Of a DNA stretch of 64,000 bases, positions 21,846 through 60,224 are shown one piece after another. The notes under the pieces are model-generated. The model saw only the letters and a program-made list of their open reading frames with translations. It was not told where the DNA came from and ran no database searches. Source of the stretch: Octopus sinensis (taxonomy: Eukaryota); contig NC_043008.1 in NCBI RefSeq assembly GCF_006345805.1, forward strand, positions 75,764,001 to 75,828,000, read 5' to 3'. Position 1 is the first letter of the stretch; each line of letters begins with the position of its first letter. The position numbers were made by a program, and so were the translations under genes.

Positions 21846-21913
<68 letters not shown>

Positions 21914-22114: not shown

Positions 22115-22197
22115 TTCTCGACATATGTTTCGAAGACTGCATATTCTTAATTCCGAAGGAATAAAGGGTGCATTATGCCGTCTTTTCATCAGGAAAG
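22115..22197 (-). ncRNA. Type I hammerhead motif with extended stem II in the 3' pLTR
   Basis: TTTC-CTGATGA-AAAGAC.GCATA...TATGC.GTCTTC-GAAA-CATAT-GTC-GAGA. Confidence 0.7.
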
Positions 22198-29399: not shown

Positions 29400-29770
29400 T
29401 TAGTTATGCGTTCATATTTAGACACGTTCTATATTTCTCGATGGGCAAATTTTCATTATTTAAGCATTCTTGTATAGAAATCGTTTCTTTGTACTGGTAG
29501 ATGGGGAAATCTGTGAAGTTTGGTTACTACCTGTATATCCCTGTATGTGTTCACTCAGATGAATCTGTCTGTATTGCCGGGACCGTGTCTGTTCCTTATG
29601 CAGTGTGGTTCTTCATCTCAGTGTCACATTTGTTTGTCCTATGTAGTTATGACCACAACCTGAGCAAGTTATAACATAAATTAGATTCTTGGAAGCACCA
29701 GTGGTTTTAATTGTGAACCTGTCTCCTTGTTCGAGTAGGAATCCCGAGCCTTGTTGTACGTTGGGGCACA
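29400..29770 (-). mobile_element. PLE GIY-YIG fragment
   Basis: SKNLIYVITCSGCGHNYIGQT. Confidence 0.75.
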
Positions 29771-31407
29771 CAAATACATACACACACACATATATAAGAA
29801 CGTATTTAAATTGTTTAAAAGAACCCACTAACCAACGAAATGAAAATATGAAACTTCAACATGTAAATGGGAAAACAAAGAAATGAAAACTGCTAAACAA
29901 ATAATTATTGAAGAAGACAATAAAGAAAATCATTAGCCTTGACGGGAACAATACTATAAAAATCTTGTTAGAGGATAAAAGCCATGTTAGAGGATAATAA
30001 TTCTATTTAAAGGCCTAAAATTGAAATCAATAAAATAATGTGAAGGCTTAGCGAATGGTTCTTAAAACTTTTTTTTTTTTGGCATCGCTGTTATTTTAAG
30101 TAGTTGTCCTACCTAGTGCCCACTTGAGTGTCTTGCAATGTATTACGACTACATTAACTTAACACGGATGATAATTTATAAAATTTACTCTAGAAATGGA
30201 TTTTATAAGCTTTTAATAGTGAAATGATAAAAAATTTATAAAAACAAGATTTGCAGATTGCAAGTTAGTGACTTCCTTTATTTGATGAAATCTAATCTTA
30301 TTTCAATAGCCATTATAAATTTTATCATGTAGAATATAATTACTACTTAGGTAAAATTTAGCATGTCAATTATAATACTTCACCGCCCCTCACTCCTAAC
30401 ATCCCCTTCTATATATCCAGCGCCTACATGAGGTCAGTACCTCCCACGTAAAAACTGGTGCCTTAAAATATAAATGAATTTATGTTGAAAGAGTTTCATC
30501 GACAAATATTATGACTATATTACAAGTTTCTGATGCATGACATACCAGAATTTCACACAAGTGGAAACATAAGTGAAGCATGCACATAACAGATAATATA
30601 TATTAATGCCACATCATCATATGATCTGACATGATGACCACTCTGACAATTACAAATCACATTCACTCAAACATACCCACACATACACAGATACACACAG
30701 AAACACGCAAATACACCCCCCATACGTATAGAGGCACACATGTGTACACAGACACACATAAAATCACAATACGCCCGTTCACCAGCAAAAAATCTTACAC
30801 ACTCAAAAGCAAAAATCACACACATATACACACAATACAATCCCAACATTCACAACAAACACTCACAAACACACAGACATACACACATACAACGAGATAC
30901 TACAATGATATATTGTTATATTAAGATATATTAAACACATTATCGTATGAATGGCTCACTAGCAATTAAAAACCAAAACGGAATTGATGAATAAAGGGTG
31001 CGAAATAGCACCAGTGATTGCTAAAAATAAGAGTCAAAATTAAATCTTAAAGCCACAGAAAGCACTAATCTCATTATATTTACGGGAAGCGGGCACAGAA
31101 AACACAATCGGTCTTTCACATGCGAGATAAACTCATAAAAAGAAATAGCTGGACAATACTTTATCAAATGATTTCGAAAATTATACCAATGTCTAATTTG
31201 TCTTCAGAAAAATCTACCGACTTCTCAGGGATAAATAGATAGTTTGCTTCGTAATAGTAAATGAGAATAGGAAACCGTTATTAAACAGCGCCAAGTTCGA
31301 ACAGTTAGCGTTATATATCCTCAATACAAGAAGATACATCAATGATATATTAATATATATTAAACACAATATATTATGAGTGGCTCTCTAGCAATTACAA
31401 AAATTAA

Positions 31408-38428: not shown

Positions 38429-41214
38429 CCACGTACATATAGATAATTATATATTTGAAAATATATCCATAGGGTGTCTCAGCATTAGTTTTCACACTTA
38501 TACGCACAGATACACACAAACCCACATATGCATGTGCGAGTGTATGCGTGTGTGCCTTTGTAAACCTATATGTAGGTGCATGAAGTGTTATTGATTTTGT
38601 TTTAAGCCAAAATGACAAAACAAAATGCGACAGGAGCAATTTTAATAGCGAAATGTAATATGTATCCCTACGTTAGCGTGGATGTTATGTTAAAACAAAC
38701 TGTAAGGGAATAGATTCCATTAGAGAAATTCTCATATTGACTTCTCAATAATTGACCTCGACCGATAGAGTTAGTAGAGACTCATGCCGCCACCAAAGAC
38801 ATATATTGAAAAATTGTTGCAGAAGAGGCAAAAAAAGGTCGAAATCACGTGACCTAAAGCTCTCGGCCCTGGAGATGGTGGGAATTATGTTCCTGCTTGC
38901 GATATATGCATCTTCCACGGTATCTTCAGCTGTATAGTTGTTATAACAGAACATCGACGTTTAAGTGGGAATAAATATTACCTCTCGGTATTAATTCTGC
39001 CTCTATTGCTTATATACATTTTTTAACAAGCTCAGTGGTTAATACCGTCGTTAGCGCCTGTTCTGGCAGTTTTCCCATATATCGCTAGCAAGTTTAGTGG
39101 TCTCGGAGCCAGAGATGTCAGGGATTGTTCCACCCGCTAGCGATATAAACAAGAGTGCATTGCGCACCAAAAGCGAATATGAGAGTTTCTGTCATGATAT
39201 CTACTGCAGTATAGTTTGTTCTAACAGAACAACCACGTTTAGTTTAAGATATATATTACCTCTCGTTAAGAGGAATGTATTTATCTGTCGTCCTGTATAT
39301 TCCCTAATATGTTTGAAGTAGGGCATCTAATATTTCATCAACGTAAGTTTATCATTTGATGTTACGTTTCAAATTGCAAGATGTGTGTTACTGCACCTAT
39401 CTCTCCGTAATTACGGATATCGCAACGAAATCATACACATTATAAATGATTCTGTTATACATGTTTAATTTCCTGCATAGTACTTAAAGGTTCATGCGTG
39501 TTAATGTTATACGAATACAGTGAGAGAACTTTTAAAGCCCGTTTATATGTTAAATGTTCGAAGGTTTGTCTTTACTTACATGACTATAAAAAATATTCTT
39601 CACTTTTAATATTTGAGAATTTTGGTGCTTTTCTATTTTACATTGCAATTTGACATTTGTGTCAACATGAAATATGCTTATCATTCAGAAACTTTCTTCA
39701 TTTTCTTTTTTTATCTTCTTTGAAGTTGCTGCTACAAACTCCAATTTCAATTATACAACTTAGCGATATCCAAAGTAGCAATTCTTGAATACTGATAATT
39801 CAACACCTTCTAAGATATATTGAAGATATCTAATCAAGTTAAATTTAAATTCTCAGTAATTCATAGCTTTTCCATTTCCTATTTTAACTGTATCGAGTAA
39901 TGTACGGGATAACTAATTGATAGGATAGTAAATTAGCTTCATATCCTGAATAATTTAGTACGTTATGAGATAAGAAAGAAAGCATTTAGTGCATTATGTT
40001 TAACTGTCATAAGTAACTCCTTAATTGCTGGAATAGTTTTAAAATAATTTATTCTGTAATTGTAAATACTTGATAAACATTGGTGATAACAAAATTACAG
40101 AAATTAAATATTTTAGTAACTGAATGCAATGTGGGTGTACTAACAAACATGGAAAGGCAAATCGAGTAGTCAATATGTTGTGTGGCTTTCCTCCTACGTT
40201 AACACACTTGATATCGATACTTAAGAGAGTTCCAAAGGGATATATGTTCTCATTCTTAATACTGTAATACACACGTACAATCTATATTAATATATTGTTC
40301 CAGCTGAGCTCGATACATGTTATACATGCCTATACATGAATTAAAGTTGTGTTTGAAACACAACAAGAAACATATATTTTGCTAATGACTCACACGTGTA
40401 ATAATCTGAAAATCTTTAGAACCCAATTTAAATTAGAATGTGTGAAGTTACCAAAAAGGGGCTAGAAATGGCTGTTTTTACTTTGAGCGTTTGGAGTGAA
40501 AGGAAAGAGAGCAATGATGCCACAGGAAACTTACACTGTAAAATGTAGCTCTATTAACTATGCATTGTCTTAATGAAAATAACATTCCTTGTTATATAAC
40601 GTTGTTATTGCCGTTTAGCCTGGCATGAAAAAGAGGCCATTTGCCATAACCTTCAATTCAATAATTCTGCGTGGCTTACAAGTGTACACTAAGAAAATAC
40701 TAAGCTCCTCTATTACAGTCATAATGTTAGTCTATTAAAGGGAGCCAACATATGTCAACCATATCACACAGAAGGGGGAGAAATATGACAGATTAATTAA
40801 CAGATAGTGTAAGGATATTTGATAACATTAAATGAAATATTGTATCCGGGTTTATAAATGTCGATTTATCGATTTATAAATGTTGATGTCTGCACTAGAT
40901 ACCTATTAAAACAGTCGAAGGAGTTTGTTCTAAATGATATTTAATCCATTAGATATCTGTAGCTGGAGAATTGGTATTTCTGTGCCAGACTATATATTTA
41001 TAATGAGGGATACAATCTCTGGAAACTGGTAATTGTATCTATCCAGAAACTGTAATGTGATAAATGGGAGATCAGTTCGGTTAATATTATAAACTTATAT
41101 ATTCAAATTATTTATGAAATTAAGATATTATAAATAAAATAAATATAATTACAAATGATATCGAAATATTGAACTATTCACATGCAATAATAAAATGGCA
41201 ATACACAAATATGC

Positions 41215-42125
41215 AGATGACTTCTACTCTAGATTTGTTGTGCCCTGTACTCACGTACACATATTTATATATGCATGTATATATACATGTAGATGTAGGT
41301 ACGTACATATATGTATGTATGTATGTAAAAATGTGTTTTATTTATTAAATTGCATGACGGAGCGCCCTCGCGTCGTTTCGTTTCCAAGTAACTTTTATAT
41401 ATAATTATGACGCGAAACTCTATAACCCTTTGCTTGATCTTCCCTTCCTTCCTATCTGTCTTCCTCTTTGCCTGTCTCTCTCCTTCGTATTTTTCACCTT
41501 TTCTGGTTTCCTTTCCTCTCTATCTTTCTCTCTCTTACTCCTCCTCATCTCTCTCACATCCGGGTCGACCAACTTCCTTTCGCTGGCGGCCTCCTACAAT
41601 TGAACACGCTTTTTTCCTGCGCTCTTGAATTTTTCCTCGTCTAGGCTAAAAAAGGCCCTCATTGTTTGTTTCCATATTTGTTTTTATTACTTGTACTGTA
41701 TTTTTTGTATTTGTATTTTTATTTTGTACTTGTTTTTTTACTTGTATTTTTATTTGTATTATTTTTACGTCCTGTTTTTGTCACACTTTTTTCTTTCCTT
41801 GTTTTTACCCCTCTGCAAAGGAATTTTATTTAATTCTTTCACAGGAAGGGCTAGTTAGACGAGTCGTGTTCTGTCCTTACCTTCGAAACACGCATGGAGT
41901 TGAACTAGGGACAGCTGATGAAGAGGAATTTTCCTTGTGTTTTTTGTCTAGTACTCTGTTTTTTCGTTGTTAAAAGAAGGTCCGTTTCCATGTTTGTTTT
42001 TACGTTTTCGTTTCTCGTTGAGTTCTACGTCTATTTGTGGTGTCCTGTACTCACGTATATATATTTATATATGCATGTATATATACATGTAGATGTAGGT
42101 ACGTACATATATGTATGTATGCATA
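41215..42125 (+). mobile_element. ORF-less element with direct terminal repeats carrying a permuted hammerhead
   Basis: Direct repeat 41244-41320 vs 42044-42120; homologous to 48401-49584 (shared TTTTTACCCCTCTGC and GTAGGTACGTACATATATG). Confidence 0.65.
41865..41926 (+). ncRNA. Non-circularly permuted hammerhead ribozyme motif (variant A)
   Basis: CGTGT-T-CTGTCCTT .. CCTTC-GAAACACG .. AGGGACAG-CTGATGA-AGAGG. Confidence 0.75.
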
Positions 42126-42134
42126 TATTTTATT

Positions 42135-42196
<62 letters not shown>

Positions 42197-43073
42197 ATAG
42201 GTATGACAGTGTATACACGGAGAGAAGAGCACCACGTGGACTTCTTACATGCTAGAAAGGCAGTCAAATCCCAAACCACGAAAAGAGCACTTTGCTTGTA
42301 AGCGAGATGGACACTTCAAGGAATAAAAATATCAGTTAAATCTACACCAATGAGTTTCCCCATTAATAATCAAATAAATCAATTAATTAGTCAATTAATT
42401 CATTAATTAAGCGTCTATGGCTCGTCAGTAGCGTCGCTGAAGAATGTATAATTATGAAACTACCGAAAGCATAAAGTAAACACATGTGCATTTAGTTCCA
42501 TCTTTATACTTCAAGAATTCAAATCTTACGCCATCAACGAAAGTGCCGAGTCAGAGTAGTACAGCAGTGAATAAATTCAACCGTGTATTATCTGTCCGAA
42601 GAATTTAAGTATATAACTATATAAATACAGGGTAAAAATATTAAATTAATAATTTTATGTCAGTGGTTAGCGTGCGTAATAAAAGATAGAAGACATAAAT
42701 ATCTTTATAATACAATAGTGTATAAGAATTTATATACGGAGAGAAGACAACCATGTGGACTTCTTGCAAGCTAGAGAGAGCAGTCAAATCACAACCACGA
42801 AAAACCATTCTTATAGCACGTTACATGTAAGTAAGCTGGACACTTGAATGAATAAAAATATACCCATGAGTTTCACAATTATACCCATGGGTTTCACCAT
42901 TAATAATCAAATAAATCAATTAATTGATTAATTAACCATTTGTTGCTCGTCAATAGAATCGCCAGAGAGATATTTACGTCTTCTAACTTTTATTACGAAT
43001 GTTAACCACTAGTACAAATTATACTAGTGGTTAGCATTTAATAAGTTTAACCCTGAATTTATATAGTTATATA

Positions 43074-43108
<35 letters not shown>

Positions 43109-43319
43109 AAACAAGTCAAGATAGAAAATGTTAAAATAACTTTATAAAGAACATTTCAGTACCGGTTTCAGTCATTTGAGACCTTTTAAACTGTAACGAT
43201 TAAATAATTAAATTTAGAAAAATTAAAAGAAAGGTTTTTTAAAAGAATATTTGTATAGTGTTCAAATATAAGTGGCATTTTCCTTGTTTCTGCCTTTCTC
43301 TGTCTCTCTTGTTTACACT

Positions 43320-44025
43320 TGTGGGTTCGAGGTCGAACAACGAAAGTTCATAAGGTCAATTACACAATATTCCCATGTGTCGGAAGGAACAATCAGAAAT
43401 GTTGTCCACGAAAATTTCCTGTAACTGTCATGGTTTTAGGTGTTGTCAGCAATGAAGGGCATGTGATGCCTCGTTACATCTTTCCACGAGCCCTTAGAGT
43501 TAACTCTGCTGCCTACATTGAGGTCCTGGAAATATTTGGTAAGCCCTGAATAGACAGTGTATGCAATAGAAGGCTATGTGTGTTTCTATAAGACTCTGCA
43601 CTGTCAGAGAGAGCTCTAGTAACACAGGAATGGATTGTTGAAAATGTTCATGATCGCATAGCTCCTAACATTTGGGCTAATAATTTCCCTGATCTCAATC
43701 CATTGGACTTTTACATGCGGAGCGTTATTAAGAGAGAGGTCAATGAACACGTCCATAACACCAAAAATTCTTTGAAAGCTGCTATAGTCAGAGTGATATC
43801 CAAAATGGAGCAGGGTCACTTGATTCGAGCATGTAGATGATTTGGATCTCTTATAGAACCTGTTGTTAAAACTGAAGGTGGCTTTATTGAATAACATTAT
43901 AGAAACGAAGGTTTATTTTTCTCCTCATAGCAGTTTTTGATAAATAATGTTATTATTTGTGATTATATATCTGTTTTTTTTATATAAACATAAAACTGTC
44001 CTCAAATATGTTACGCACTCTGTAT
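43320..44025 (+). mobile_element. Tc1/mariner-superfamily transposase relic (DD37D/maT-like)
   Basis: KFPVTVMVLGVVSNEG...YIEVL, WANNFPDLNPLDFY, ending EGGFIE. Confidence 0.8.
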
Positions 44026-45273
44026 ATATATGTGTGTATATGCATATACACACTTATATATATATATATATGTGTGTATATATATATATGTGTGTATGTG
44101 TGTATGTATTAATTCCAAAACAATCTACAATCACCAATATCAGACGTATGCTCATTTGGAGCATAATAATGCCAATACACTTAGATATTCTAGTAACTTT
44201 TACGATACATTACAAAACTATATTCCATGGACTACGTTGTATATTATATATAATTGAACATCTCTCAACTGTTTTTCTCCAGATTACTATTATTGTCTCT
44301 CAGTTATTTGTTACATCCATATTTCGCTTTTTTTGTTTTCATATGTGACACGTTTAACTAATGTCTGTAACAGGAGAGTCGCACAAATAATCAGTTCGTA
44401 TGCGATGTTATGTGATTTTTAAATGAAGACTCCTCCCATAATTGCCATGTGTTAGACATGGATATCTATGCAAGTAGCCATTCCATGCTACTTTTTTCTT
44501 ATATTGTTAGTAGTATTTATTTCTTGGAATCCTAATGGATATATTTCACTTAGTTCAAGACATCATCAGTTCCAAAAAGGTTATGCTTCACCATGTGGTT
44601 ATATGATAAACAGAAAGATAGAGATAGAGACAGCAATGCAATAAATGGTATTATATAACATGTAACTACAGCTAGACACCATAATATAATATTGAATGTG
44701 TATCACATGAAAGAAAAGTTTCAGAAATGACCATGTTTCACTACAGATGTAAAACACATTTGATATATTTAAAAAAACGTATACATATTACTCCAAACGT
44801 TATGTTATTGTATAAATATTCTTCATAAGATATCACATAACATATTTTCAAAGAGTAATATTTTTCATATCGTTTGCAAACGTTTTCCATTTTCTTCTTT
44901 CTCAGGCATTACCCATGGTTATTACATCCTGTCTTATTGTTTCAGTTGCTGAATATGTCGCAGACATTTTTCAGCAACAAAATTTCACGAAACTCTGTAC
45001 CAAATGTATAAATGATGTGTTAGAGGAAAACATCTTAACCTCAGAAGTGATGTAGTACTTTCCGCCATCCATTAAAAAAAAATGTTTCTCTGGTTTTCTT
45101 ACAACATTTCCTGTAATCTCATTTTTTATTGTGAGACTCGGTAAACTTGCATTCACTTTAGGTACCTTAAAGGATTACATAACACATACATTCTAATAAT
45201 AAATACATATAAACATGCATAATATGCACATTAACAGATATATGTATATGAATGTGTTTATATTTATAAGGTG

Positions 45274-45312
<39 letters not shown>

Positions 45313-45429
45313 TTTTATTAAGTAATGTCGAGTTTTACAATTCTGTAAATAATAATAGTAGCATTTTATACGATTAAAGCTGATAGCGATCACCGCGCAA
45401 TGACTAACAAAAATAGTCTATTAATGGGG

Positions 45430-46186
45430 AATGTAATCCCTCGACAGTGAAGAAACATATGTGTGGGAGACGAACACACATCCCTTTATTAACGCGACTA
45501 AGTGTGTTACCGATTACAAGCAAACTAACCTGTTAAATTTAAGAAGTATATTAGTATATTAGATGGCCGAAAATTGTTGATAGTAACGAATAATCTGGGA
45601 GACCTGCAATCAACAGTCCTGTGAAATACATCGCAGATGTGCATGCAACTGTGAGTGGAAATCGCCGAATCACCATCCGTGAGTTATCAGAGGATGTCCA
45701 GGTTAGTTAAGGTTTAGTCCAGTCCATTATCACTGACGATTTGGGTATGAGACACGTGTCTGCTAATTTTGTGCCCAAACTACTTCAGCTAACCAAAAGG
45801 ACACTCGAGTTTCAGTTGCACAAGATCTCCTTGATTGTATCGAGAACAACGAAGACTTTTCGAAAAGTTGCTGTAGGCCTCTAATCAGACATCGCCAAGC
45901 TTTTAGCACAATTTGAGGCAGATTTTCTGCTGAACTTTCTCAACCATTGTCAATGTGACTATCACACGATACACACCTTCCTTCCAAGCACTGCTGTAAA
46001 CAACAGAAGTAAGTTAGAACGATAAAAGTTAGAGAAATCAACCAACTGATTCGCATATTGGAAATACAAGTGGAACAGTAAAACCATGCAAGAATTTTCT
46101 TGGGGTTTAAAATTTGATATGGTTTTTATTATCCACATTCCAAAGATGGAACTTTGCATTTGCTAAAAAAAAAAACAGCCCCTTCT
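45430..46186 (+). mobile_element. Mariner relic (HTH/linker region)
   Basis: NRRITIRELSE...SIITDDLGMRHVSANFVPKLL at ~45660-45785. Confidence 0.65.
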
Positions 46187-46253
46187 TCAGATGAAGAATT
46201 TAAATGAGGAAATACATAAGAGGCACATACATGCATGCATACACACGCACATA

Positions 46254-46287
<34 letters not shown>

Positions 46288-46959
46288 TATTTATACATAT
46301 ATATATATATACATACATACACACACACGCACACACATGCACACACGTGCACACACGTACATATATACATATATATACATACATACATATGCGCATATGG
46401 AGAGAGAAAAGGGAAGAGAGATATATGGGAATTATAAAGATAAGGCATATCAATATTAGGACGGAGAGAGAATATTTTAAAAAGGACACTGACATTATAC
46501 ACACATACGGTACTATCACGGATATCTGATATAATGCACCGAGAAACTACAGTAAACTGAGATTGTCCCACTCTTTAGATTAAAATCTAACTTCCAGGAA
46601 TGTCAGGGGATCTATATAAGAATAGTTTAGCTCTCGATAAGTCTGTGTCTGTTTCATACCGTCTCGAAATCTATAAAATCGATCAAAAATCCTTATCGAG
46701 TCCTAGCATTTGACTCAGCTTTCTTTGATACTGTGGTGTATACATAGGTCGCTGAGGAGACGATGCCGAGTTGTCATTACAATATTACGATCGTGAATGT
46801 AGTACTCTAACCACTAAAGTACGCAGCAACACACAGGCAGACATACATACACACACAAACAGTCACACACACAGGCACACACACACACACACACACACAT
46901 ACACACACAAACACTCCACTCACACACAAATAAATATGATGACATTCTACTCTATGCTG

Positions 46960-47530
46960 TTTTCTTCCCCATTCTTTTCTAATTTACTTTTTCTCCCCTT
47001 CACCGTTTTCTATCTATCACCCCCCTCTTTCTCTTTTTCTCTCTCCCTCGTTGCTCACAAGTGACCATCGCCCATCTTTCTTTTCCTCCCATGAACTTCT
47101 TTCTTTTCCTGCACGACGTTCTAAGGATTGGGCGTCTTCTATCTCCCTCTTCTATCTTTTTTGTTTTTCAAAGAGAATATTTCTCCTAGCATTCATTATT
47201 TTCCTCTCGTTCTGGTCTAACGATGCTTCATCTTCGTTTTCGTCCGGGTTCCTTGTATTTCTCTACTGTCCTGTTTATGTTTCCAACTTTGACTCTCCAA
47301 AGATCCAAAATTTTATTTTTGAATTTATGGGAGTATCTGTCATTGAAATTTCATATTGTCGCTGAATGCTCGAAATGAGGAGTAGATAGACAGCCGACAA
47401 CTGATGAAGTGTCGTCCTCCGTGTTATTTGTCTTGTTTTCGATCTTTCCCTTCTTTGCGTATTAAACTCATTTGTTTCAGTACATTAGGTTGTTTACAAA
47501 GTTGGTGACGTCCTGTACCAATATATGCTT
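46960..47530 (+). mobile_element. PLE-like terminal region with permuted hammerhead (related copy at 59815-60180)
   Basis: Shared TATTTTCCTCTCGTTCT.GTCTAACG...CCAACTTTGAC...CAAAATTTTATTTTTGAATT. Confidence 0.6.
47349..47412 (+). ncRNA. Non-circularly permuted hammerhead motif (variant B)
   Basis: TTTCAT-A-TTGTCG .. ATGCTC-GAAATGAGG .. CGACAA-CTGATGA-AGTGT. Confidence 0.65.
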
Positions 47531-47551
47531 GTATACACACACACATATATA

Positions 47552-47656
<105 letters not shown>

Positions 47657-47761
47657 ACGAGGGTGAGAAAATGGATATTAATTCAAGTAACATCAATTTA
47701 ACAACAGTCGTCTAGCATATTAAAATCTGAAGGTAAATTGTATTATATACATATGAGAGGG

Positions 47762-48218
47762 ATGACCACTATGTGGAAAACCCTTATGCTAGAAGTAGAT
47801 CCGCTATTGTCTTACCACTAAGAAAATGTCTGAAGATAAATTTAGCAAACATCGGAACATAAGCGAGTAAGACAAATAAAAAATAACAAAAATATAGATT
47901 ATTCACATACATATTTCACTATTAACAGATAGTTAGAACTAGATACAAGTCCAACCTCGAGAGGACGTGCTCGTGTATAGTTCTGCAAATTATATTTGTA
48001 TTGACAGTCACACTGAAGATCTACGGACTAACTGCGTAAGTAAAAGTACGTAATCTGTTAATAGTAAAACATGTATGTGAATAATCTATATATCTGTTAA
48101 TTTTCATTTGTCTTGTTAGCTTACATTCTGATGTTTGCTAAATTTTCTTGAAAGCATTTCTTAGTTGTTGGACCATAGCGAATCTACTTCTAAGATAATG
48201 GTTGTCCACATAGTGGTC

Positions 48219-48220
<2 letters not shown>
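47762..48220. repeat. ~165-bp diverged inverted repeat between (TA)n tracts (probable PLE terminus)
   Basis: ATGACCACTATGTGGA.AACC... vs ...GGTT.TCCACATAGTGGTCAT; CTGAAGA in the spacer. Confidence 0.7.
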
Positions 48221-48252
<32 letters not shown>

Positions 48253-48596
48253 GCATAAAAATTTAATGGTTTACAACTAGTAACTTACTCACTTTTACGG
48301 TAATCGTTAGGTATTTAGGTATATGTCAAATGAAAGACGGAAGATGGAATATACGAGAATATATTATTAATCATTTGCCATATATATATATATATATATA
48401 TGTTAATAAAATAGAACATATGCATATATATAAACATATATGTACGTACCTACCTCTACATGTACATATACACGCATATATGTGTACAGGACACCAAAAA
48501 GACGTCGAACACATAGAGAGACGAAAAACATAGACACAAACCAAGGAACAAGACAAGCAAAAAAAAGAGATACAGGACAATAAGCACAACGAAAAA

Positions 48597-48658
48597 TCCC
48601 CTTCTTCAGTCGCTAATGTTTCATCTACTAAACGTTTCGAAGGATAAAAGCGAGACGT
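48597..48658 (-). ncRNA. Non-circularly permuted hammerhead motif (variant C, copy 1)
   Basis: ACGT-C-TCGCT .. TCCTTC-GAAACGT .. AGCGA-CTGAAGA-AGGGGA. Confidence 0.75.
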
Positions 48659-49428
48659 ATACTTCGAAGAAAACTTCCTTCCTGCGAAAAGCAAATCAAT
48701 TAAAATTCTGAGATCTTTTCGCAGAGGGGTAAAAAAAGCAAGACGGTAACGACAGTACAAACATATAAACAGTAAAAATATATATATATAAACAGTGGAA
48801 AAATAAATATATAACAGTGAGAGACAGGACAAGGAGAACAAGATAAGAAGGGCTGTTAACGCCAGACGAAAAAAGTATTGCAAACGCTGGATTATAGTGG
48901 ACGACGAGAGAGAAAGAATGTCGACCAGTAGCCTTAGAAGGCGGGCGAGAAAAGACAGGATAGCAGTTACGACGGAAGTATCGTCGCAGATGGACGACGG
49001 GAATGGGGGAGGAAGAGGAAGAGAGAGAAGAAGGGGAATGGTGCGAGGAGACCATGAAGAACGATGAGGGGGAGAGAGAGAGGAAGAGACAAGTTAAGTG
49101 AGGGAAAAAAGACGAAAAAGGGAATGGGAGAGAAAGAAGGAAAGATGCAGAGTCGCGTGAGAGTTAATATCAAGGCTAACTTGATAAACAGAACAATCTT
49201 ACTTAATAGGGTGCGTGCGTTTAGTCGTATAATGTGTTAATAAAATAGAACATATGCATATATATAAACATATATGTACGTACCTACCTCTACATGTACA
49301 TATACACGCATATATGTGTACAGGACACCAAAAAGACGTCGAACACATAGAGAGACGAAAAACATAGACACAAACCAAGGAACAAGACAAGCAAAAAAGA
49401 GATACAGGACAATAAGCACAACGAAAAA

Positions 49429-49490
49429 TCCCCTTCTTCAGTCGCTAAGGTTTCATCTACTAAACGTTTCGAAGGATAAAAGCGAGACGT
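49429..49490 (-). ncRNA. Non-circularly permuted hammerhead motif (variant C, copy 2)
   Basis: Same as 48597-48658 with one change in a linker. Confidence 0.75.
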
Positions 49491-49620
49491 ATACTTCGAA
49501 GAAAACTTCCTTCCTGCGAAAAGCAAATCAATTAAAATTCTGAGATATTTTCGCAGAGGGGTAAAAAAAGCAAGACGGTAACGATATATATATAATATAT
49601 ATATATATTATATATATATA

Positions 49621-49652
<32 letters not shown>

Positions 49653-50033
49653 GAGATGTGTGTCTGTGTATGCATATATCTAAGCATACATGTATGTGTG
49701 TACTGAACTTCATGCAGACAACTAGTTAACTTGAAATTCAAGGTAATTAAATTTTAATCGTAGCTCAATCTCGTTTTCATGAAAAATGATTTGTGTTTCT
49801 TTTCTTAATCTTGTCTTTTACTATCAAACGCTGCCATGTTCTATTCCCTTCTCATTTTATATTTAGCACTTTCATCTTGTTTCAGAAGTCACCAGGAAAG
49901 ATTCTTTTTATATATAAGTTGTAAAAATCTGACGTTGAATTGGAAAGGGAACATTGTGTGACTTTGAATGTATATGAGTGTGTGGTGTACCCACACACAC
50001 ACACTCATATATATCATATATACATATACATAT

Positions 50034-50110
<77 letters not shown>

Positions 50111-50929
50111 CGTGGGTGTATATGTGTATATAAGTATGAGTGAAGGATTTTACAGGCTTTGTCAGAGGGAGAAAAAGAAGAGGAAAGAAAGAAATGGGTC
50201 CTTTCTGGATGGCTGAAATTGCATCGTATTTTTTAATCAGTTCTATGCTACGTATCTGTCGAAAGGTGTCTTTTTCGGGGAGTGTTTAAATTTATGATAG
50301 TTCAAGAGGTCAATTTTCTTTAGTTATTGGTTTATTGGTTTTCGTGTGTGTCGGTTATGATGTTATCCAGATGTAGAGAAACATTTCGGAAGATTATTAA
50401 ATGATTGTGTGCTTAATCGCACCTGTGAGAAAGAGAGTGAGTATGTTTTGTGTGACTTAAGTGAAGTTTTCCAGTTATTTTATTAACAATAGCGCAAACA
50501 TTTTAATGAGGACTCCTCATGTATGTATTTTTTGTGTACGTTTAGCATACGTTAGAATTATTTTGATAAAATGTAATTCCATTGCCTTCCGGTACCTTGT
50601 CTCATAATTTGGGCATGTGTAGAAGGGAATGATCTTGGTATTCTTTCTACACATATTTTCAGATGCTTACTCAGCAGAAACCTTGCGTAATTCATTTTGT
50701 TGTTTGAAGATACTTGCATACTCTTTTACTTGTTCAGTCATTTGACTGCGGCCATGCTGGAGCACCACCTTTAGTCGAGCAAATCGATCCCAGGACTTAT
50801 TCTTTGTAAGCCCAGTACTTATTCTATCGGTCTCTTTTTGCCGAACCGCTAAGTGACGGGGACGTAAACACACCAGCACCGGTTGTCAAGCAATGCTAGG
50901 GGGACAAACACAGACACACAAACACACAC

Positions 50930-51033: not shown

Positions 51034-51064
<31 letters not shown>

Positions 51065-51068
<4 letters not shown>

Positions 51069-51632
51069 AAGAGCAATAAAGATTCAAGTTAATTTAAAAA
51101 ATTTACTTGAATATGGTACCTAACTTAGATGCACCAAAAAAAACTATACTGATTTAACAATACAGTAATGTGGGGTGATTATAAGCGAGAAAGAAGCAAC
51201 AAGAATGGATAGGTTTTTAGTACGATCGTTTCATACAAGGACAGGTTTTATTAAAAGTTGCAAAGATTACAGCATATAAACGAGTCCCGTACTCATCAGC
51301 TAAAATACATAAAATCCCTCATCATATCTATGGAAATTCATATGGATTAGGTCACCTTCTCTGTGATGCTATCAAAACTTTTTTAAAATTCTGTGATAAG
51401 ACTATACATCATCTTTAAGGAACTTTAATGAACTTTAGAAATCTGTTTAATTATCTACATTACTTCATGAGTATAGCCTCAAACACTAGGATGTCTAGAG
51501 AACTTACATGTATTTTAGCTGATGAGTACGGGACTCGTTTATATGCTGTAATCTTTGCAACTTTTAATAAAACCTGTCCTTGTATGAAACGATCGTACTA
51601 AAAACCTATCCATTCTTGTTGCTTCTTTCTCG
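51065..51632. mobile_element. PLE terminal insertion with perfect ~125-bp inverted repeat and two hammerheads
   Basis: 51186-51310 is the reverse complement of 51508-51632; SINE segment CGACAGACTTCTTTCAGTTTCCG is duplicated on both sides. Confidence 0.8.
51513..51603 (+). ncRNA. Type I hammerhead with long stem II (inverted copy at 51215-51305)
   Basis: TTTTAG-CTGATGA-GTAC...GTAT-GAAA-CGATC-GTA-CTAAAA. Confidence 0.75.
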
Positions 51633-51959
51633 TATATATATATATATATATACATATATACGACAGACTTCTTTCAGTTTCCGTCTACCAAATCCACTCA
51701 CAAGGCATTGGTCGGCCCAGGGCTTTAGCAGAAGACACTTGCCCAACATGCCACGCAGTGAGACTGAACCCAGAACCATGTGGTTGGTTAGCAAGCTACT
51801 TTATTTCATATAAGTTGCCATTTAGGCATTTACAAAGAGGGGACAAACAAGGACAGACAATTATAAAGGGTGAAGTAGTTTAACACAGTTAAAATTTTCG
51901 AATGAAATTACGGATAAGATTATAACCAATGAATATTACGAAGACAATGTTTAAAAATA

Positions 51960-54900
51960 TTACTTAATGATCATATCGAAGGACGGACACCCAGCCATCC
52001 GGGTAGAATGGCTGCCAAACATACCCAGCTTGCATGCCACAGGCTTCCATCTTTTCACAAACATATCTCGTGACAGACACCTCTTCTCCAGCCTGATTTT
52101 GCTACTGAGGTGGTAACTAAAAAAGTTAATCAACCCCTGGCCGGAGACAAAGGTGCCTGTCACTATACCTTTCGTACGCGTCTTCCATATTGTTTCTTTC
52201 AGTATGGCTACTACACAGAAAAAACAAGCCTTTCTTTCCCTGTTAAGGAAAGGAGGCGGCACAATCTCGATGATAGACTCAGCTGATAGCTGTACTGTTC
52301 CAATCACTGACAATAGTTGTTCGGCAAAAGCTATCAGTCCCGATAACTCCGGGCACTCCACGAATGCGTGCAAGACGGTTTCCCTATCCAGCTCACATCG
52401 CGGGCATGTCTGTGAGACGGCACTTCCGTGCCTTGACAGCTTGTCGCGAACAGGTAAAGCCGCACGGAAACACTGCCAGGCCAGGGATTTCTGGTAATTA
52501 TCCAGATACCCCGGCCCGAACGTCCTCCGGAACAGGTTGACCAGCTGATTTTCATCGTAGACCAGGGTCTACCACAAGGCGCCTTCGGACTTAACCTCCA
52601 CTAACCCGCTATAGAAATCCGTGGTGGAACTCCTGTTGCCGGTGTTGCCCGCCCGAGATAGTAGCTGGGGCGCCTGACGTTCCAAATGCCATTCAACCAG
52701 TTTAGGTCTCCGCTTGATCCATGCACCGATGTCCGTTAGGGATGTTAACTGGGGATGGTAGAACCGGACGTGCGGTGACCACACCTGCTCTCCATCCAGG
52801 TAAAGCCAGAGATGCCTTAAACTTAACGCGAGTTTTTGCATCCTCAGCCAAGGCATCCCTAGCCCACCCTTTAGCGGTTTCTGGCAGCAGACAGAGCACT
52901 TTACATGTGGCTTTCCTTCTTTCCACAAAAAGCGGAAAAGGATTCTCTCCAACTTGTTCAGCCACAAATCGGGGCAAGGCACCACGGTCAGACGGTAGGT
53001 GATTACTGATGCTATAAACATCTGAACCACCTCCGCCTTCCCTAGCAGGAATAACGCCCGCCCAGACCAGGTCTGGGTTAGAGCGGTCACCTTGTTGGCC
53101 ACCTCACTCCAATTTTTCTCAATCTGGAGGTCTGGCCCGAACCAGACTCCGAGCAGCTTAACAGGAACTTCCGTCCAACGCTCTACGACGCTATTGGACG
53201 GCATCGGTTTGCCCCTCCAGGTGCCGAGTTGCAAACCGACCGACTTGTCCTTGTTAACCTTTGCTCCTGCCACCGCCTCGTAGCTTTTGATGGCCTCTTC
53301 CACCACTGGAAGCTGGCCTTCGTCTGCCACAATGGTGGAGGTGTCATCCGCATACGCCGTAGCTCCTCTTCCACACCATAGATCATGCGGCGCGCAACCT
53401 AGTGCCTCCAACTTCCGCAGCAAAGGCTCAAGGGCCAATACGTATAGGAGCGAGGACAGGGGACACCCTTGACGAACTGAACGCTCGATCCTGAACGGCT
53501 TCGAAAAGAAACCGTTCACTTTGACTACAGACTCGATGAGGCTATACAAAGCAGCGATCCAACCTCGAAAGGTCGGGCCTAGGCCAGCCTCTCCGAGGAC
53601 CGCCGCCAAGTACTGATGGTCGACCCTATCAAATGCTTTGGACTGGTCTAAAGGTACCAGTGCTCACCTGTGCCAGAAAGCTTCCCCACCCTCTCTAAGG
53701 AGTAGCGTATAAGGTGGAAATTATCGTGGATCGGTCTGCCAGGGATAGCGCACATAAGGGCCTCATCATGATCCAGCGTCCCGCACCTCCCGAACAACTC
53801 GGCGAAGTGCTTGTGAAGTGCGTCACACATCTCGTCCCGCTTCTTGACCGTGCATCCGTTTTCATCAACAAGAGACCCAATTGTGGCATCGTTGCCACGC
53901 TCTGTTTCTATCGTACGGGCCCATCCGGCAACATTAATTCCCTCACGGCCCAATGCTCGTACTTTAGCCCAAACTCTACACCCCTCATGTTTGGTTTTGA
54001 GGTGACGGTCTAATGCCGTTCTCGCCGCTAAAGTGTGAGATGCAGAGCCCAACCTCAACGCCTCCTCTAAGTTCTTAACTAGTTGCCCTTCTATTCTAGC
54101 CCTATCTAGTCTTAGTTGTTTGCTAAATCTAATAGACTCGAATCGAATGGCTCTTTTGAGGGCGAACCACCACCGGTTATAAACCACGGCTCCGGTTAAC
54201 GCCCTCTGCACTAACTCCTTAATCCGGCTACGGTATGCATCGCGAGTCAAACTATACTTGTTCAGCTTCCAGTAGCCGGTTCCTATCTTAAGTGTGCTAT
54301 CTATGTCCAGTCTACACTTGACCATTCTTTGATCAGTATAAGGCACCTGGACGAGCTGTGGACAACTAAAACTAGACTTATCTCTAGTTCTTATCCCTAT
54401 CCTGTCTAGATAAGGCTTGAACCTTCCGTCGCCACTCATCCAGGTCCACTCTGGGACGTTCGGATGGTCAAGTCTGTAACGATCCGCCAGCTGAAACCGC
54501 TTAAGCAGATCCACGAGACGTGAGTTCACTTTCCTATAGATCGAGCCAACGCTATCGATGTGTACGTCAACGATAACATTAAAGTCCCCTAATATCACTA
54601 AAATCTTCGACGTCACGAGAAAGCCCTCTAGGCGCCGATAAAAATCAGTTTGGAAACCTCTAGCACAAGGTGCATAGAGTCCGATCAACCTGAAGGCCTT
54701 ACTGCTGTATGTCACATCAAGGACGACCAGCCCACCTTCTGGGTCCACATAGACTGTACTTGTCTGCAGAGCCAAGCCTTTACGGATCAGTACCACTACA
54801 CCCCCTCGCCCTCCGGTCTGGCCAGGAGACATGATTTTCTCGTAGCCATTCAGGAAAGGCGAGAAGGTTTGTAGCCTGTACAGATTGGTCTCTGTAGCAA

Positions 54901-55006
54901 CCATCACATGTATATCATGTGATCTGAGGTCGTCGAGGAAACAAGCCTGCTTCCACTTCGAACTCAGACCACGCACATTTAAAGAACCAAGGTTAAGAGA
55001 AGCCAT
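51960..55006 (-). pseudogene. Tx1-like ORF2 (AP endonuclease plus RT), frameshifted and internally deleted
   Basis: SLNVRGL, LGDFN, YLDRI, GYWKLN, SVRQGCPLS, AYADD, GGLGMP, CPRC...HAFVEC. Confidence 0.9.
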
Positions 55007-55027
55007 TACAAAAAGTAAAAAAGTTCT

Positions 55028-56470
55028 ACTTACATTTCGTTGGAGAGGTTGGGGCCGACCTCACCACACGTTTGTGGGCCCCTTCTTTCTCCTCCTTCTT
55101 CAGATAGTCCGGCAAGTTCGCGATACGCCGGATGGCGTTTGGGTGTCTGTCTTTTAATTGTTTGAACGTTGTTTCCGCAATCCACGCATATCTTTCGTTT
55201 CGATCTTTGTGTTTGTTGTACAGTCTTGCTGTGTGATGCGGAACTACAATATCGTTTATATATTTGTTTTGTGTGTCATATTCAATTAATATGCGTTCAT
55301 GTTTTTTGTCTTCTTTTTCTGGGCCAGGTGGGCGGGATTTTTTTTTTGTGTCTGTGGTGTGTCTTTGTGTATATTATTTTTTGTAGGGGGTGTGGACGGG
55401 GATGATGCACGAATTCTTTTACGAACTGTTGTAAATCCCCCCTCTGATACCTCCATGGTATCGTCTGGGGTAGCAATATTTTGTTCAGTAGGCGCCGCAG
55501 TTTTTAAGGGAGTGGGAGGTTTTAATAATGTAGGGGTTTGTGAGTGCAAGGGCTGGTTTTTTTTGTCAGTTTGTTTTGGGGTTGGCACCGTAACAGCAGG
55601 AGTGGGACTTTTTGTTTTTGTAGGGGTAGGTGAGTTTGCAAGGGTAGGGATTTTTTTATTATCTGAGGGGCCTGGTGTCTGCGGTTTCTTTTGCTTGTCT
55701 GGAGAATCTACACGAATGTGGCCCTTTTTGCCGCAGGCGTAACAGGTGGGCTTTCGGCCTTCGACCTGTACCCTGAGGGCCACATTCTCGCCCACGAGCA
55801 CCCTCTCAGGAAGGAGCTGCAGGGCCTCCGGTGTTCCTTGAATTATTATATTAATGTCTCGCCCAAGCCAATATTGAGGGGCACAGCATGTTACCTGTAG
55901 TATTTTAATTTTGTCCGTCCTTTTATATAACAGGGCGGCCACTACCTCTACCGGATCGACTTCTGGCGGTGCTTCTGCAATCCTGACCCGGGACGTCCTG
56001 CGTCCTCTATAGCTTGGCAGAAGTACCACCTCCTTGGTTTTTAGGGGATTCACAGAATGCCCGTGGGCCACCTCTTCCCCCGAGAAGCGGACCTCCACAG
56101 TGCCATATGCCCGTCCTCTGGCAACGTACACAATGTCCTTCCAAATCGGGGACAGGCATTTCTCGATAGTATTCTTTTCAAAGTGTTTGAACCTTCTGCT
56201 TTGTGGACAGAAAGTTTTAAACACTACGGTCCGCTTCTCGGTCTCCACGATACTGGCGGAGGGTGATATTTTAACATCACCACCCTCCTCTTTCATTCTT
56301 TTAAATAGCTCGACGAGCCGATTGACATTAATGACAATGTTCTCGGTAGCCAATGCGGCTACCGCAGAAATTTTTTTACTACAGTTATCAACATTGCTCT
56401 CCTCAAGAGCACTATTTTCGTGATTAATCTCAACAGACATTATTCTGTTGAAATTAGTAATAGACAACAC
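55028..56470 (-). pseudogene. Tx1-like ORF1 (zinc-knuckle protein)
   Basis: 394-aa frame with EGRKPTCYACGKKGHIRVDS and a P/T/K-rich tail; C-terminus continues in another frame. Confidence 0.8.
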
Positions 56471-56709
56471 AAAAATTACAAATATTGGTTTCCTACAAAA
56501 CTGGGAAACCTATAAAAAGTTTTTCTTCCAAAGCAGTTCAATGAGTGGTAAAAAGCAGTTCAAAAATTTCAATTCCCACCCCCATTCGGGGGAGGGGCAC
56601 GAAATTAGTCTGGCAAGACTATATACAGTCATGTAGATAAAAAAGCCACAATGGCTAACAGTTCAACAGTAACAAATTATCCAATTATTCCCCGGTAAAA
56701 TCGGAGAAC

Positions 56710-57943
56710 AAGGGCCTCACCATGATCCAGCGTCCCGCACCTCCCGAACAACTCGGCGAGGTGCTTGTGAAGTGCCTCACACATCTCGTCCCGCTTCTTG
56801 ATCGTGCATCCGTTTTCATCAACAAGAGACCCAATTGTGGGATCGTTGCCACGCTCTGTTTCTATCGTACGGGCCCATCCGGCAACATTAATTCTGTACT
56901 TTAGCCCGGACTCTACATCCCTCATGTTTGGTTTTGAGGTGACGGTCTAATGCCGTTCTCGCCGCTAAAATGTGAGATGCAGAGCCCAACCTCAACGCCT
57001 ACTCTAAGTTCTTAACTAGTTGGCCTTCTATTCTAGCCCTATCTAGTCTTAGTTGTTTACTAAATCTAATGGACTCGAATCGAATGGCTCATTTGAGGGT
57101 GAACCACCACCGGTTATTAACCACGGCTCCGGTTAACGCCCTCTGCACTAACACCTTAATCCGGCTACGGTATGCCTCGCGTGTCAAAATAGACTTGTTC
57201 AGCTTCCAGTAGCCGGTTCCTATCTTAAGTGTGCTATCTATGTCCAGTCTACACGTGACCATTCTATGGTCAGAATAGGGCACCTGGACGAGCTGTGGAC
57301 AACTAAAACTAGACTTATCTCTTGTTCTTATCACTATCCTGTCTAGGTAAGACTTGAACCTTCCGTCGCCACTCATCCAGGTCCACTCTGGAACGTTCGG
57401 ATGGTCAAGTCTGTAACGATCTGCCAGCTGAAACCGCTTAAGCAGATCCACGAGACGTGAGTTCACTTTCCTATAGATCGAGCCAACGCTATCGATGTGT
57501 ACGTCAACGATAACATTAAAGTCCCCTAATATCACTAAAGTCTTCGATGTCACGAGAAAGCCCTCTAGGCGCCGATAAAAATCAGTTTGGAAGCCTCTAG
57601 CACAAGGTGCATAGAGTCCGATCAACCTGAAGGCCTTACTGCTGTATGTCACATCAAGGACGACCAGCCCACCTTCTGGGTCTACATAGACTGTACTTGT
57701 CTGTAGAGCCAAGTCTTTACGGATCAGTACCACTACGCCCCCTCGCCCTCCGGTCTGGCCAGGAGACATGATTTTCTCGTAGCCATTCAGGAGAGGCGAG
57801 AAGGTTTGTAGGCTGTCCAGCCTGGTCTCTGTAGCAACCATCACATGTATATTATGTGATCTGAGGTCGTCGAGGAAACAAGCCTGCTTCCACTTCGAAC
57901 TCAGACCACGCACATTTAAACAACCAAGGTTAAGCGAAGCCAT
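56710..57943 (-). pseudogene. Second Tx1-like ORF2 copy (APE only, truncated)
   Basis: CLNVRGL, LGDFN, YLDRI, YSDH, GYWKLN. Confidence 0.88.
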
Positions 57944-57960
57944 TACAAAAAGTAAAAGTT

Positions 57961-59392
57961 CTACTTACGTTTCGTTGGAGAGGTTGGGGCCGACCTCGCC
58001 ACACGTTTGTGGGCCCCTTCTTCCTCCTCTTTCTTCAGATAGTCCGGCAAGTTCGCGATATGCCGGATGGCGTTTGGGTGTCTGTCTTTAAATTGTTTGA
58101 ACGTTGTTTCCGCAATCCACGCGTGTCTATTTCGATATTTGTATTTGTTGTACAGTCTTGCTGACTGATGCTGAACCACAATATCGTTTATGTATTTGTC
58201 TTGTGTGTCGAATTCAATTAATATGAGTTCATTTTATTTTTTGTTTTCTTTTTCTGGGCCAGTTGAGCGGGATTTTTTTTTTTCCGTGTCTGTGGTGTGT
58301 CTTTGTTTTTATTATTTTTTGTAGGGGATCTGGACGGGGATGCTGCACGAATTCTTTTACGAACTGGTGTAAATCCCCCCTCTGATACCTCCATGGTATC
58401 GTCTGGGGTGGAAATGGTTTGTTCGGTAGGCGCCGCAGTTTTTAGGGGTGTGGGAGGTTTTAATAGTGTAGGGGTTTGTGAGTGCGAGGGCTGGGTTTTT
58501 TCTTCAGTCTGTTTTGGGGTTGGCACCGTAACAGCGGGAGTGGGACTTTTTCTTTTTGTAGGGGTAGGTGTGTTTGCCAGGGTAGGAACTCTTTTATTAT
58601 CTGAGGGGCCTGGTGTCTCCGTTTTTTTTTTGCTTGTCGGGACAGTCTACACGAATGTGGCCCTTTTTGCCGCAGGCGTAACAGGTGGGTTTTCGGCCTT
58701 CGACCTGTACCCTGAGGGCTACGTTCTCGCCCACGAGCACCCTCTCAGGAAGGAGCTGCAGGTCCTCCGCTGTTCCTTGAATTAATATATTAATGTTACG
58801 CCCGAGCCAAAATCGAGGGGTAGAGCATGTTACTTCTAGTATTTTTTATTTTGTCCGCCCTTTTATATAATAGGGCGGCCACTACCTCTACCGGATCAAC
58901 TTCCGGCGGGGCTTCTACAATCCTGACCCGGGACGTCCTGCGTCCCCTATAGCTTGGAAAAAGTACCACCTCCTTGGTTTTTAGGGGGTTTACAGAATGC
59001 CCGCGGGCCATTTCTTCCCCCGAGAAGCGGACATCCACTGTGCCATATGCCTGTCCCCTGGCGACGTACACGATGTCCTTCCAAATCGGGGACAGGCATT
59101 TCTCGATGGTACTTTTTTCAAAGTGTTTGAACCTTCTGCTTTGTGGACAGAAAGTTTTAAACACTACGGTCCGCTTCTCGGTCTCCACGATACTGGCGGA
59201 GGGTGATATTTTAACATCACCACCCTCCTCTTGCATTTTTTTAAATAGCTCGACGAGCCGATTGACATCGATGTCAATTTTCTCGGTAGCCACTGCGGCT
59301 ACCTCAGAAAATTTTTTAACATTGTTCTCCTCAAGAGCACTACTTTCGTGAATAATTTCAACAGACATTATTCTGTTGAAATTAGACAACAC
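57961..59392 (-). pseudogene. Second Tx1-like ORF1 copy, frameshifted
   Basis: Homologous to 55028-56470; CCHC knuckle retains its final Cys. Confidence 0.8.
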
Positions 59393-60024
59393 AAAAATTA
59401 CGAGTATTGGTTTCCCACAAAACTGGGAAACCTATAGAAAGTTTTTCTTCCAAAGTAGTTCAAAAAAGCAGTTCAAAAATTCCAATTCCCACCCCCATTT
59501 GGGGGAGGGGCACGAAAATAGTCTTGCAGGACTATGTATAGTTACGTAAATAAAAAGCCACAGTGGCTAACAGTTCAACGGTAAGAAATTATTCAATTAT
59601 TTCCCGGTAAAACCGGAGAACAAGACAGTTCAGCAACGTTTAAAGGCAAATTTTCAGTAGTAGGAATTCAACAATTAACAACACAGCAAAACTCTTACCG
59701 GGAAGAAAACGCGTCCACACCGTAGTACGGTAAGCAAAGTCACTCTTCTGTCAGTGAGGTTAGCAAGCTACTTACCACACAGCCACCCCTGCACCTAAAG
59801 ATAATATAAATCATATTTTTTCTCTGTCTTCTAACTTTCCTCTCTCCAAAAGGAAATGTTTCTCCCAGCATTCACTATTTTCCTCTCGTTCTCGTCTAAC
59901 GCCCTTCATGTTTGTTTTCACTCAGTTTCCTTTTATCTTCGCTGTCATTTTCTTGTTCCCAACTTTGACCCTCCATAAATTCAAAATTTTATTTTTGAAT
60001 TCATGGGAGAAACTGTCATTGATA

Positions 60025-60088
60025 TTTCATATTGTCGTTGAATGCTCGAAATGAGGAGTAGATAGACAGCCGAAAACTTATGAAGGGT
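60025..60088 (+). ncRNA. Degenerate permuted hammerhead (variant B, copy 2)
   Basis: TTTCAT-A-TTGTCG..GCTC-GAAATGAGG..CGAAAA-CTTATGA-AGGGT; core mutated. Confidence 0.45.
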
Positions 60089-60224
60089 CCTTTCTCTGTT
60101 GTAACTTGTCCTGTTTTCCATTTTGTTTATGTATTTCATGATATTCGCACCGTTGATGATGTTCCGTACCCATATATACATGTATATTATTTATTATTTA
60201 TTATATATATATATGTGTGTGTTT

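Follow-up and report, generated by a model that had tools for sequence, protein, structure and literature searches.

What kind of element produces two near-identical repeats, each carrying a hammerhead-like ribozyme, inside a microsatellite of an animal genome, and how might such an element fold, cut and spread? The locus lies in a 64,000-nt stretch of Octopus sinensis DNA (contig NC_043008.1, positions 75,764,001 to 75,828,000), here called the window and analysed as a whole. A sequence-only reading had described direct repeats of about 350 bp, some 833 bp apart, within an insertion in (TA)n, and both points held on measurement. The repeats R1 and R2 aligned over 355 bases with 4 mismatches and one 2-nt indel (98.3% identity by BLAST), their spacing was 832-834 bp, and (TA)n tracts were present on both sides (Table 1). 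Two of the mismatches were internal (48617/49449 and 48715/49547) and the other two lay at the repeat edges; neither internal difference broke a ribozyme helix, and both cores were intact. The G+C content of the insertion was 458 of 1184 bases, with about 38% for the unit.

Table 1 Features of the main element and of related loci in the window. Helix names carry a prime for the second strand.
Feature	Position	Strand	Details
Whole insertion	48401..49586	-	about 1.43 units of an 832-bp unit; partial tandem, pseudo-LTR-like
Repeat R2, upstream (5' in transcript sense)	49232..49586	-	BLAST and alignment
Repeat R1, downstream	48398..48754	-	BLAST and alignment
(TA)n tract, element 3' end, putative target	48381..48401	.	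sequence
(TA)n tract, element 5' end	49587..49652	.	sequence; the (TA)n call spans 49584-49652
AU-rich hairpin, 17-bp stem, just before the element/(TA)n join	49250..49315	-	folding; R1 copy at about 48416-48481
Ribozyme copy 1	49430..49561	-	descriptor score 33; block coordinates counted by eye
Copy 1, upstream part		-	IV 49561-49557; hairpin V 49556-49548/49522-49514; II 49513-49508; P 49506-49502
Copy 1, S block		-	III' 49490-49488; UH 49487-49486, predicted cut after 49486; I 49485-49481
Copy 1, G block		-	II' 49476-49471; GAAA 49470-49467; III 49466-49464
Copy 1, remainder		-	P' 49454-49450; I' 49446-49442; CUGANGA 49441-49435; IV' 49434-49430
Ribozyme copy 2	48598..48729	-	score 34; layout as copy 1, 832 nt downstream; predicted cut after 48654
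Predicted 832-nt monomer between the two cuts	48654..49485	-	folding
11-nt body tract complementary to core strand 49439-49429	49027..49037	-	pair probability 0.89-1.00 in the nested model
Sister element e41	41218..42165	+	801-bp unit and 110-bp partial repeat; ends in (TA)n
Ribozyme of e41	41808..41926	+	score 29; main-copy layout, GUU triplet, predicted cut after 41870
Distant member e47	46940..47545	+	start approximate; ends in a CA/TA microsatellite
Ribozyme of e47	47290..47414	+	score 31; main-copy layout, AUA triplet, predicted cut after 47355
Truncated member e60	59820..60210	+	81% to e47

The same reading had seen no coding signal in the element. This was borne out with one caveat, a stop-free minus-strand frame of 231-240 codons (48371-49093) that drew no support from Pfam, the protein databases or Atlas. 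Frames of this length were equalled in 9, 3 and 1 of 500 local shuffles with block sizes of 60, 100 and 200, respectively, so that the frame is mildly unusual. The longest ATG-started frame in the main element had 119 codons; the longest frame in the sister copy e41 had 107, and the 231-240-codon frame was not kept there. Pfam returned 0 families for both long frames of the unit, no relative of the unit frames was found among 6645 longer and 3613 similar-length protein candidates, and comparison with Atlas (recognition 874, best score 0.80) lent no support. A tblastx comparison of the main unit with e41 gave short matches only, in several frames and with stops, and none of the Pfam, protein-database and Atlas comparisons found a remnant of a reverse transcriptase (RT) or endonuclease in the unit. 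We treat the main unit as non-coding on this sequence evidence, with a stop-free frame that is unexplained, unconserved and without relatives.

On the minus strand of each repeat the hammerhead blocks follow one another in the order S-G-C (49490-49430 and 48658-48598) with a GUC triplet, and the two predicted cuts fall 832 nt apart. The core was complete in R1, R2, e41 and e47, comprising CUGANGA, GAAA and an NUH triplet with A15.1-U16.1, and stems I-III were present. The S-G-C order is neither the C-G-S order of hammerhead types I-III nor a circular shift of it, and no Rfam hammerhead was matched, either over the whole window at the gathering score or over 41000-50500 at E<=5; the weak miRNA matches that Rfam gave were rejected as AT-repeat hairpins. 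A type GCS reading of the main copy was also rejected, giving stems with just 2-3 Watson-Crick pairs, and a core-like motif at 46752 fell outside the descriptor even with a relaxed G block.

Read from 5' to 3', the layout comprises six helices in the order IV, hairpin V, II, P, III'/NUH cut/I, linker, II'/GAAA/III, P', I'/CUGANGA, IV'. Copy 1 contained 5 Watson-Crick pairs in stem I, 6 in II, 4 in III, 5 in IV and 9 in V, and 4 with one G-U pair in P. The strand before GAAA has an upstream partner with 6 and 5 Watson-Crick pairs in the main copy and e41, respectively, and 6 pairs in e47. The strand after CUGANGA pairs further upstream instead, as helix IV; hairpin V comes immediately after the upstream strand of IV, with the stem II strand next in line. 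Helix P forms between the stretch that follows II and the stretch that precedes I'. Complementarity for IV, V and II, leaving no unpaired bases between them and the core, was seen in four loci. Because A9 leads into helix IV and not into stem II, helices IV, V and II and the core would share one junction. Judged from these sequences, the fold is probably other than the published type SGC, with a four-way junction at A9/10.1, and we are confident that a stem II drawn from the upstream strand is the conserved fold of the family. The 'swapped hammerhead' proposed earlier is right in its S-G-C block order and probably not in its fold, in which stem II most likely comes from the upstream strand.

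A plain pattern of G block followed by core matched the window 4 times against 0.53 expected, and 0 of 100 shuffles reached 4. The six-helix descriptor scored 34, 33, 31 and 29 in the window, and the next score was 16. Among 2000 block-shuffled windows 1 reached 33, 5 reached 31 and 19 reached 29, with two hits of at least 29 in none, figures that are flattering because the descriptor was written after the hits were known. Between the main copy, e41 and e47, two-sided changes that keep pairing affected 5 of 6 positions in stem I, 3 of 4 in stem III and 4 of 6 in stem II; these were counted by eye, as MAFFT did not bring the S and G blocks of different subfamilies into register. Helices IV and V appeared in the minimum free energy and centroid folds of R1, R2 and e60; in e41 and e47 the folds contained hairpin V. 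Nested folding did not recover stems I, II and P in the main copy, where competing hairpins appeared, and local ribozyme z-scores ranged from -0.8 to -2.5 overall, being weak for R1, R2 and e41 (-0.8 to -1.3). By its sequence the main RNA qualifies as a hammerhead and fits none of the six named permutations cleanly. By analogy with known hammerheads, the ribozyme of the main family would be likely to cleave itself in vitro. Against this stands a 2026 preprint by Li et al. (10.64898/2026.07.22.740005), where no cleavage was seen for 8 of the 9 retrozyme dimers that had been predicted.

Searching the 64-kb window by BLAST and with a profile derived from it located three further family members, e41, e47 and e60 (Table 1). 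Neither these nor the link to Naiad elements described below had figured in the sequence-only reading. The sister element e41 is itself a partial tandem (41218-41327 versus 42019-42127, 91%), and the sequences of stems I, III and P of its ribozyme differ from those of the main copy. Once each was opened at its tandem junction, the units of the main element and e41 aligned end to end with 541 identical of 706 aligned bases. Similarity in three internal segments was equalled by 1, 5 and 0 of 300 shuffles (first 100 nt: 1 of 300). The more distant e47 aligned to the main copy with 57% identity over 670 columns (E 8e-8). Helices IV and V are intact in e60 (59967-60089), and its core (one substitution) and stem I are mutated; the descriptor misses this locus, whose ribozyme, from its sequence, is probably inactive. 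Both e47 and e60 are shorter than one unit. The four loci are dispersed and occur in both orientations, all span the predicted cut site, and each gives way to a TA or CA microsatellite at a similar position downstream of the ribozyme.

Types SGC and CSG (Eckert et al. 2023, PMC10085705) share with the present motif the reversed S-G-C order, a full core, a short linker from I to II' (3-4 nt here) and a further helix that connects stems I and II at their distal ends, here helix P. They differ in that block C is probably split here, with stem II taken from the upstream strand and IV and V placed at A9/10.1; in type SGC, stem II is formed by the strand after CUGANGA. The article states that no known hammerhead has more than 1-2 bases between CUGAnGA and its stems. 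It also assumes that an interruption at A9/10.1, such as predicted here, does not occur, which counts against the proposed fold. It reports SGC only from RNA metatranscriptomes and CSG only from soil DNA metagenomes (5 CSG sequences), and, one GCS candidate aside, no motif from the genome of a known organism. The main motif, in contrast to these environmental sequences, resides in repeats of an animal genome.

Among mobile elements, metazoan non-LTR retrozymes (Cervera and de la Pena 2020, PMC7229834; Li et al. 2026 preprint) are likewise ORF-less repeats with one hammerhead per unit, dimeric ribozymes flanking the monomer, a GC content <45% and a proposed dependence on Penelope-like elements. 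Plentiful monomeric RNA, both linear and circular, is a further hallmark of these retrozymes. The main element shares their lack of ORFs and their tandem ribozymes and does not share their type I hammerhead. Their units measure about 150-450 bp (PMC7229834) or 51-972 bp (2026 preprint), whereas the main element has an 832-bp unit, a partial tandem and a non-circular ribozyme. Its circle is predicted to be 46% paired, in contrast to the high degree of self-pairing ascribed to the circles of animal retrozymes (PMC7229834). Plant LTR retrozymes, as portrayed in passages of PMC7229834 and the 2026 preprint, are similar in having direct repeats of about 350 bp, each with a hammerhead, and a monomer of 600-1000 nt. 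They possess a type III hammerhead, PBS/PPT, a 4-bp target duplication, a GC content >55% and a Gypsy helper, unlike the main unit, which has about 38% GC, is not type III, looks like a partial tandem and sits in (TA)n, where a target duplication is unreadable.

In the full-text literature covered, which was mostly non-subscription, we found no report of a non-circular hammerhead in an animal genome, of a Naiad ribozyme fold or of an A9/10.1 junction; Weinberg et al. 2015 is cited for additional-helix variants, which may bear on novelty. None is described in the available parts of PMC7229834, PMC13159263, PMC13725137, PMC10162972, PMC6765202, PMC3088659 or the 2026 retrozyme preprint. If the RNA cleaves, it would represent a hammerhead topology beyond the six held possible by Eckert et al. 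and, as far as we found, would be the first case of non-circularly permuted hammerheads residing in a cellular genome. The motif escapes both Rfam and type I descriptors, so invertebrate genomes may contain an entire class of retrozymes that has gone uncounted.

Naiads are Penelope-like elements that, according to Craig et al. 2021 (PMC8557442), prefer (TA)n, form partial tandems and are devoid of canonical hammerheads; many, Octopus Naiads among them, have core motifs that fit no hammerhead descriptor ('HHR_core', 'HHR_half_core'). Naiad consensi in File S5 of that article were searched for two of the four core spellings, and the matches were judged by eye. With the first spelling, 60 of 62 supplement matches were judged, 19 being in the Naiad file: 9 had the six-helix layout, 2 were of type CSG and 8 were neither. 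The second spelling gave 23 matches, 16 in the Naiad file, comprising 3 CSG, one S-G-C variant that has helix IV and forms stem II as a local hairpin, and others that were unresolved or within ORFs. Further reading of File S5 added one more CSG consensus. By eye, the six-helix layout therefore occurs in at least 9 of 54 Naiad consensi and type CSG in at least 6 of 54. The nine six-helix consensi build these helices from unrelated sequences and make up about 6 independent lineages, Octopus included; they consist of three near-identical Acropora records, two near-identical Octopus records, one from Euprymna with one stem II mismatch, and three known by file position, the first of which, probably Beroe, has just 2 pairs in stem I. 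All six CSG-type consensi are in the nematode part of File S5 (parts 13-16).

The main element and Naiads (PMC8557442, File S5) have in common the (TA)n target, the pseudo-LTR partial tandem and, by eye, a six-helix core near the 3' end. They differ in that the main element has no EN-RT ORF and its unit is a quarter of Naiad length; PMC8557442 gives no Naiad ribozyme fold. The (TA)n target and partial tandem also characterise other Penelope-like clades and so are not diagnostic of Naiad dependence. By eye, the main unit and the 3' ends of the Octopus Naiad consensi in File S5 showed no sequence likeness beyond the fold. No Naiad RT was found in the 64-kb window, and an ORF with N-terminal GIY-YIG, CxC and RT, as in an autonomous Naiad, is absent from the element. 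With R1 and R2 about 99% alike, the insertion appears young, in contrast to cephalopod Naiads, which the same source describes as long inactive. Weighing these points, we lean slightly towards a Naiad as the helper of the main family. We are evenly divided on a broader proposition, namely that Naiads of ctenophores, cnidarians, arthropods, cephalopods and nematodes carry reversed-cycle hammerheads, of type CSG in nematodes and of a split-block four-way-junction topology elsewhere; that the family in the window is active, its ends clamped by four helices and efficiently self-ligating; and that the soil CSG sequences of Eckert et al. may be nematode Naiads. Cleavage by the main RNA would overturn the view that Naiads spread with no ribozyme, make hammerheads nearly universal in Penelope-like elements and bear on circular RNA as a Penelope-like transposition intermediate.

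The predicted monomer folded better than shuffled sequences (z -6.5 as a linear molecule, 20 shuffles; -5.2 as a circle, 25 shuffles). In the folding model, the 11-bp pairing of body tract and core strand could act as an off switch or block the second cut, and it may capture the core of the downstream ribozyme before the ribozyme folds. A 10-bp masking helix in e41 sits at another offset than in the main unit, so composition may explain such helices. We propose that the partial tandem is transcribed by read-through or internally and that both ribozymes, by analogy, would cut after the NUH triplet to release the 832-nt monomer. Helices IV, II, P and III would bridge its ends and favour self- or RtcB-type ligation into a circle, and the core strand is predicted to be masked once the circle has closed. 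The RT/GIY-YIG enzyme of a Penelope-like element would then nick (TA)n and prime at the AU-rich hairpin end, and copying of the circle for more than one turn could account for the observed insertions of 1.1-1.4 units with a fixed 3' end. A Naiad would be the most likely source of this enzyme, given that Naiads insert into (TA)n and have this ribozyme layout at their 3' ends.

On a linear monomer, copying from the TA point would run out at the cut site, about 250 nt in. For copies to extend past the cut, the template must be a circle or an uncut multimer, or the enzyme must jump between templates, alternatives that are not distinguishable from sequence. By analogy, we think it reasonably probable that the 832-nt monomer or circle exists in vivo. 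We give a comparable degree of preference to the full model of a non-autonomous retrozyme-like family with a unit of about 800-830 nt, a rewired hammerhead and Penelope-like mobilisation. Against it weigh the weak local folding scores, the modest pairing of the circle, the GUU triplet of e41, the mutated core of e60 and the failure to find a Naiad RT in the window. The retrozyme-like reading made from the sequence agrees with the anatomy and is partly supported, in that a diverged second unit of 801 bp shares the internal junction and the 3' end and all copies cross the predicted cut. Its swapped fold is probably wrong, and release of the monomer and mobilisation in trans would be expected by analogy.

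The copies might instead derive from the long 3' UTR of an autonomous Naiad or other Penelope-like element, as partial tandems that lost their 5' part, in which case the ribozyme would be real and there would be no independent retrozyme. Partial tandems and 5' truncation are usual in these elements (PMC8557442), Naiad 3' ends have this ribozyme layout, and the lengths of e47 and e60 fall below one unit. Yet two subfamilies that are about 65-77% alike, with units of 832 and 801 bp, begin anew at a homologous junction, a coincidence not expected of random truncation, and the Pfam, protein-database and Atlas comparisons showed no RT or endonuclease remnant in the unit; we regard this origin as unlikely. 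We attach even less weight to a purely DNA-based history, in which a decayed repeat was duplicated by slippage or unequal exchange between TA tracts and the ribozyme is a relic with no RNA cycle, and we consider it very improbable. The window is indeed rich in microsatellites and local duplications, e60 is degenerate, and nested folds lack an active core, but both cores of the main element are intact, the internal differences between R1 and R2 spare the helices, stem sequences change in a compensatory way, and the four dispersed loci occur in both orientations, each ending at a microsatellite at a comparable point.

A different doubt concerns the fold. The active structure could be the published SGC, with the strand that follows CUGANGA supplying stem II, one base being bulged, and with IV and V flanking or inhibitory. 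A downstream stem II of 4 pairs is possible in R1, R2 and e41 and, by eye, in e60, and the 3-4-nt linker from stem I to II' is as in SGC. However, 2 of these 4 pairs are G-U in the main copy (1 in e41), and e47 has a U-U mismatch (by eye). In the nine six-helix Naiad consensi of File S5, the downstream stem has 0-2 pairs as against 5-6 for the upstream stem in all but one (by eye). We consider the published SGC fold improbable here and retain the upstream-strand stem II.

The surroundings of the family are AT-rich and full of microsatellites and retroelement fragments. At 21906-25647 (-) lies a Penelope-like element with a frameshifted RT, a C-terminal GIY-YIG and 254-bp direct repeats (96%), with a type I hammerhead in its repeat near 22192 (by eye); from its motifs we take it to be Hydra-clade-like. 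Penelope-like ORF fragments at 5066-6600 (+) lie between 870-bp inverted repeats (95%) in the interval 4257-9877, where motifs resembling a minimal type I hammerhead also occur, at 4318 (-) and 9816 (+). The best named match of a Penelope-like protein neighbouring the family was from the octopod Argonauta hians (39% identity). The Penelope-like ORFs at 5066-6600 and 22772-25357 were rejected as a Naiad helper, the endonuclease being placed after the RT, as was an endonuclease fragment at about 29400-29800 with no RT after it.

Further hammerhead-like motifs were scattered over the window. A repeat family at 499-760 and 51037-51638 carries a type I hammerhead with a long stem II, with inverted copies at 51215-51305 and 51513-51603. 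An inverted repeat pair (32640-33057/34174-34557) has type I hammerhead-like cores at 32784 and 34414, and another such core is at 13809 (by eye). A broken RT of another non-LTR clade occupies 10197-12690 (+), and a GAAA block upstream of a CUGANGA core after it, at about 12640-12700, did not fit the descriptor. A 1.1-kb tandem duplication at 1244-3493 (99.2% identity) is a recent event or an assembly artefact. Next to e60, at 51960-59780 (-), lies a LINE that has endonuclease and RT domains and contains a tandem duplication of 2.95 kb (92%). The main element is itself adjoined by an inverted-repeat element at 47762-48220, whose arms measure 169 bp (84%) and whose centre contains a degenerate hammerhead core (48013).
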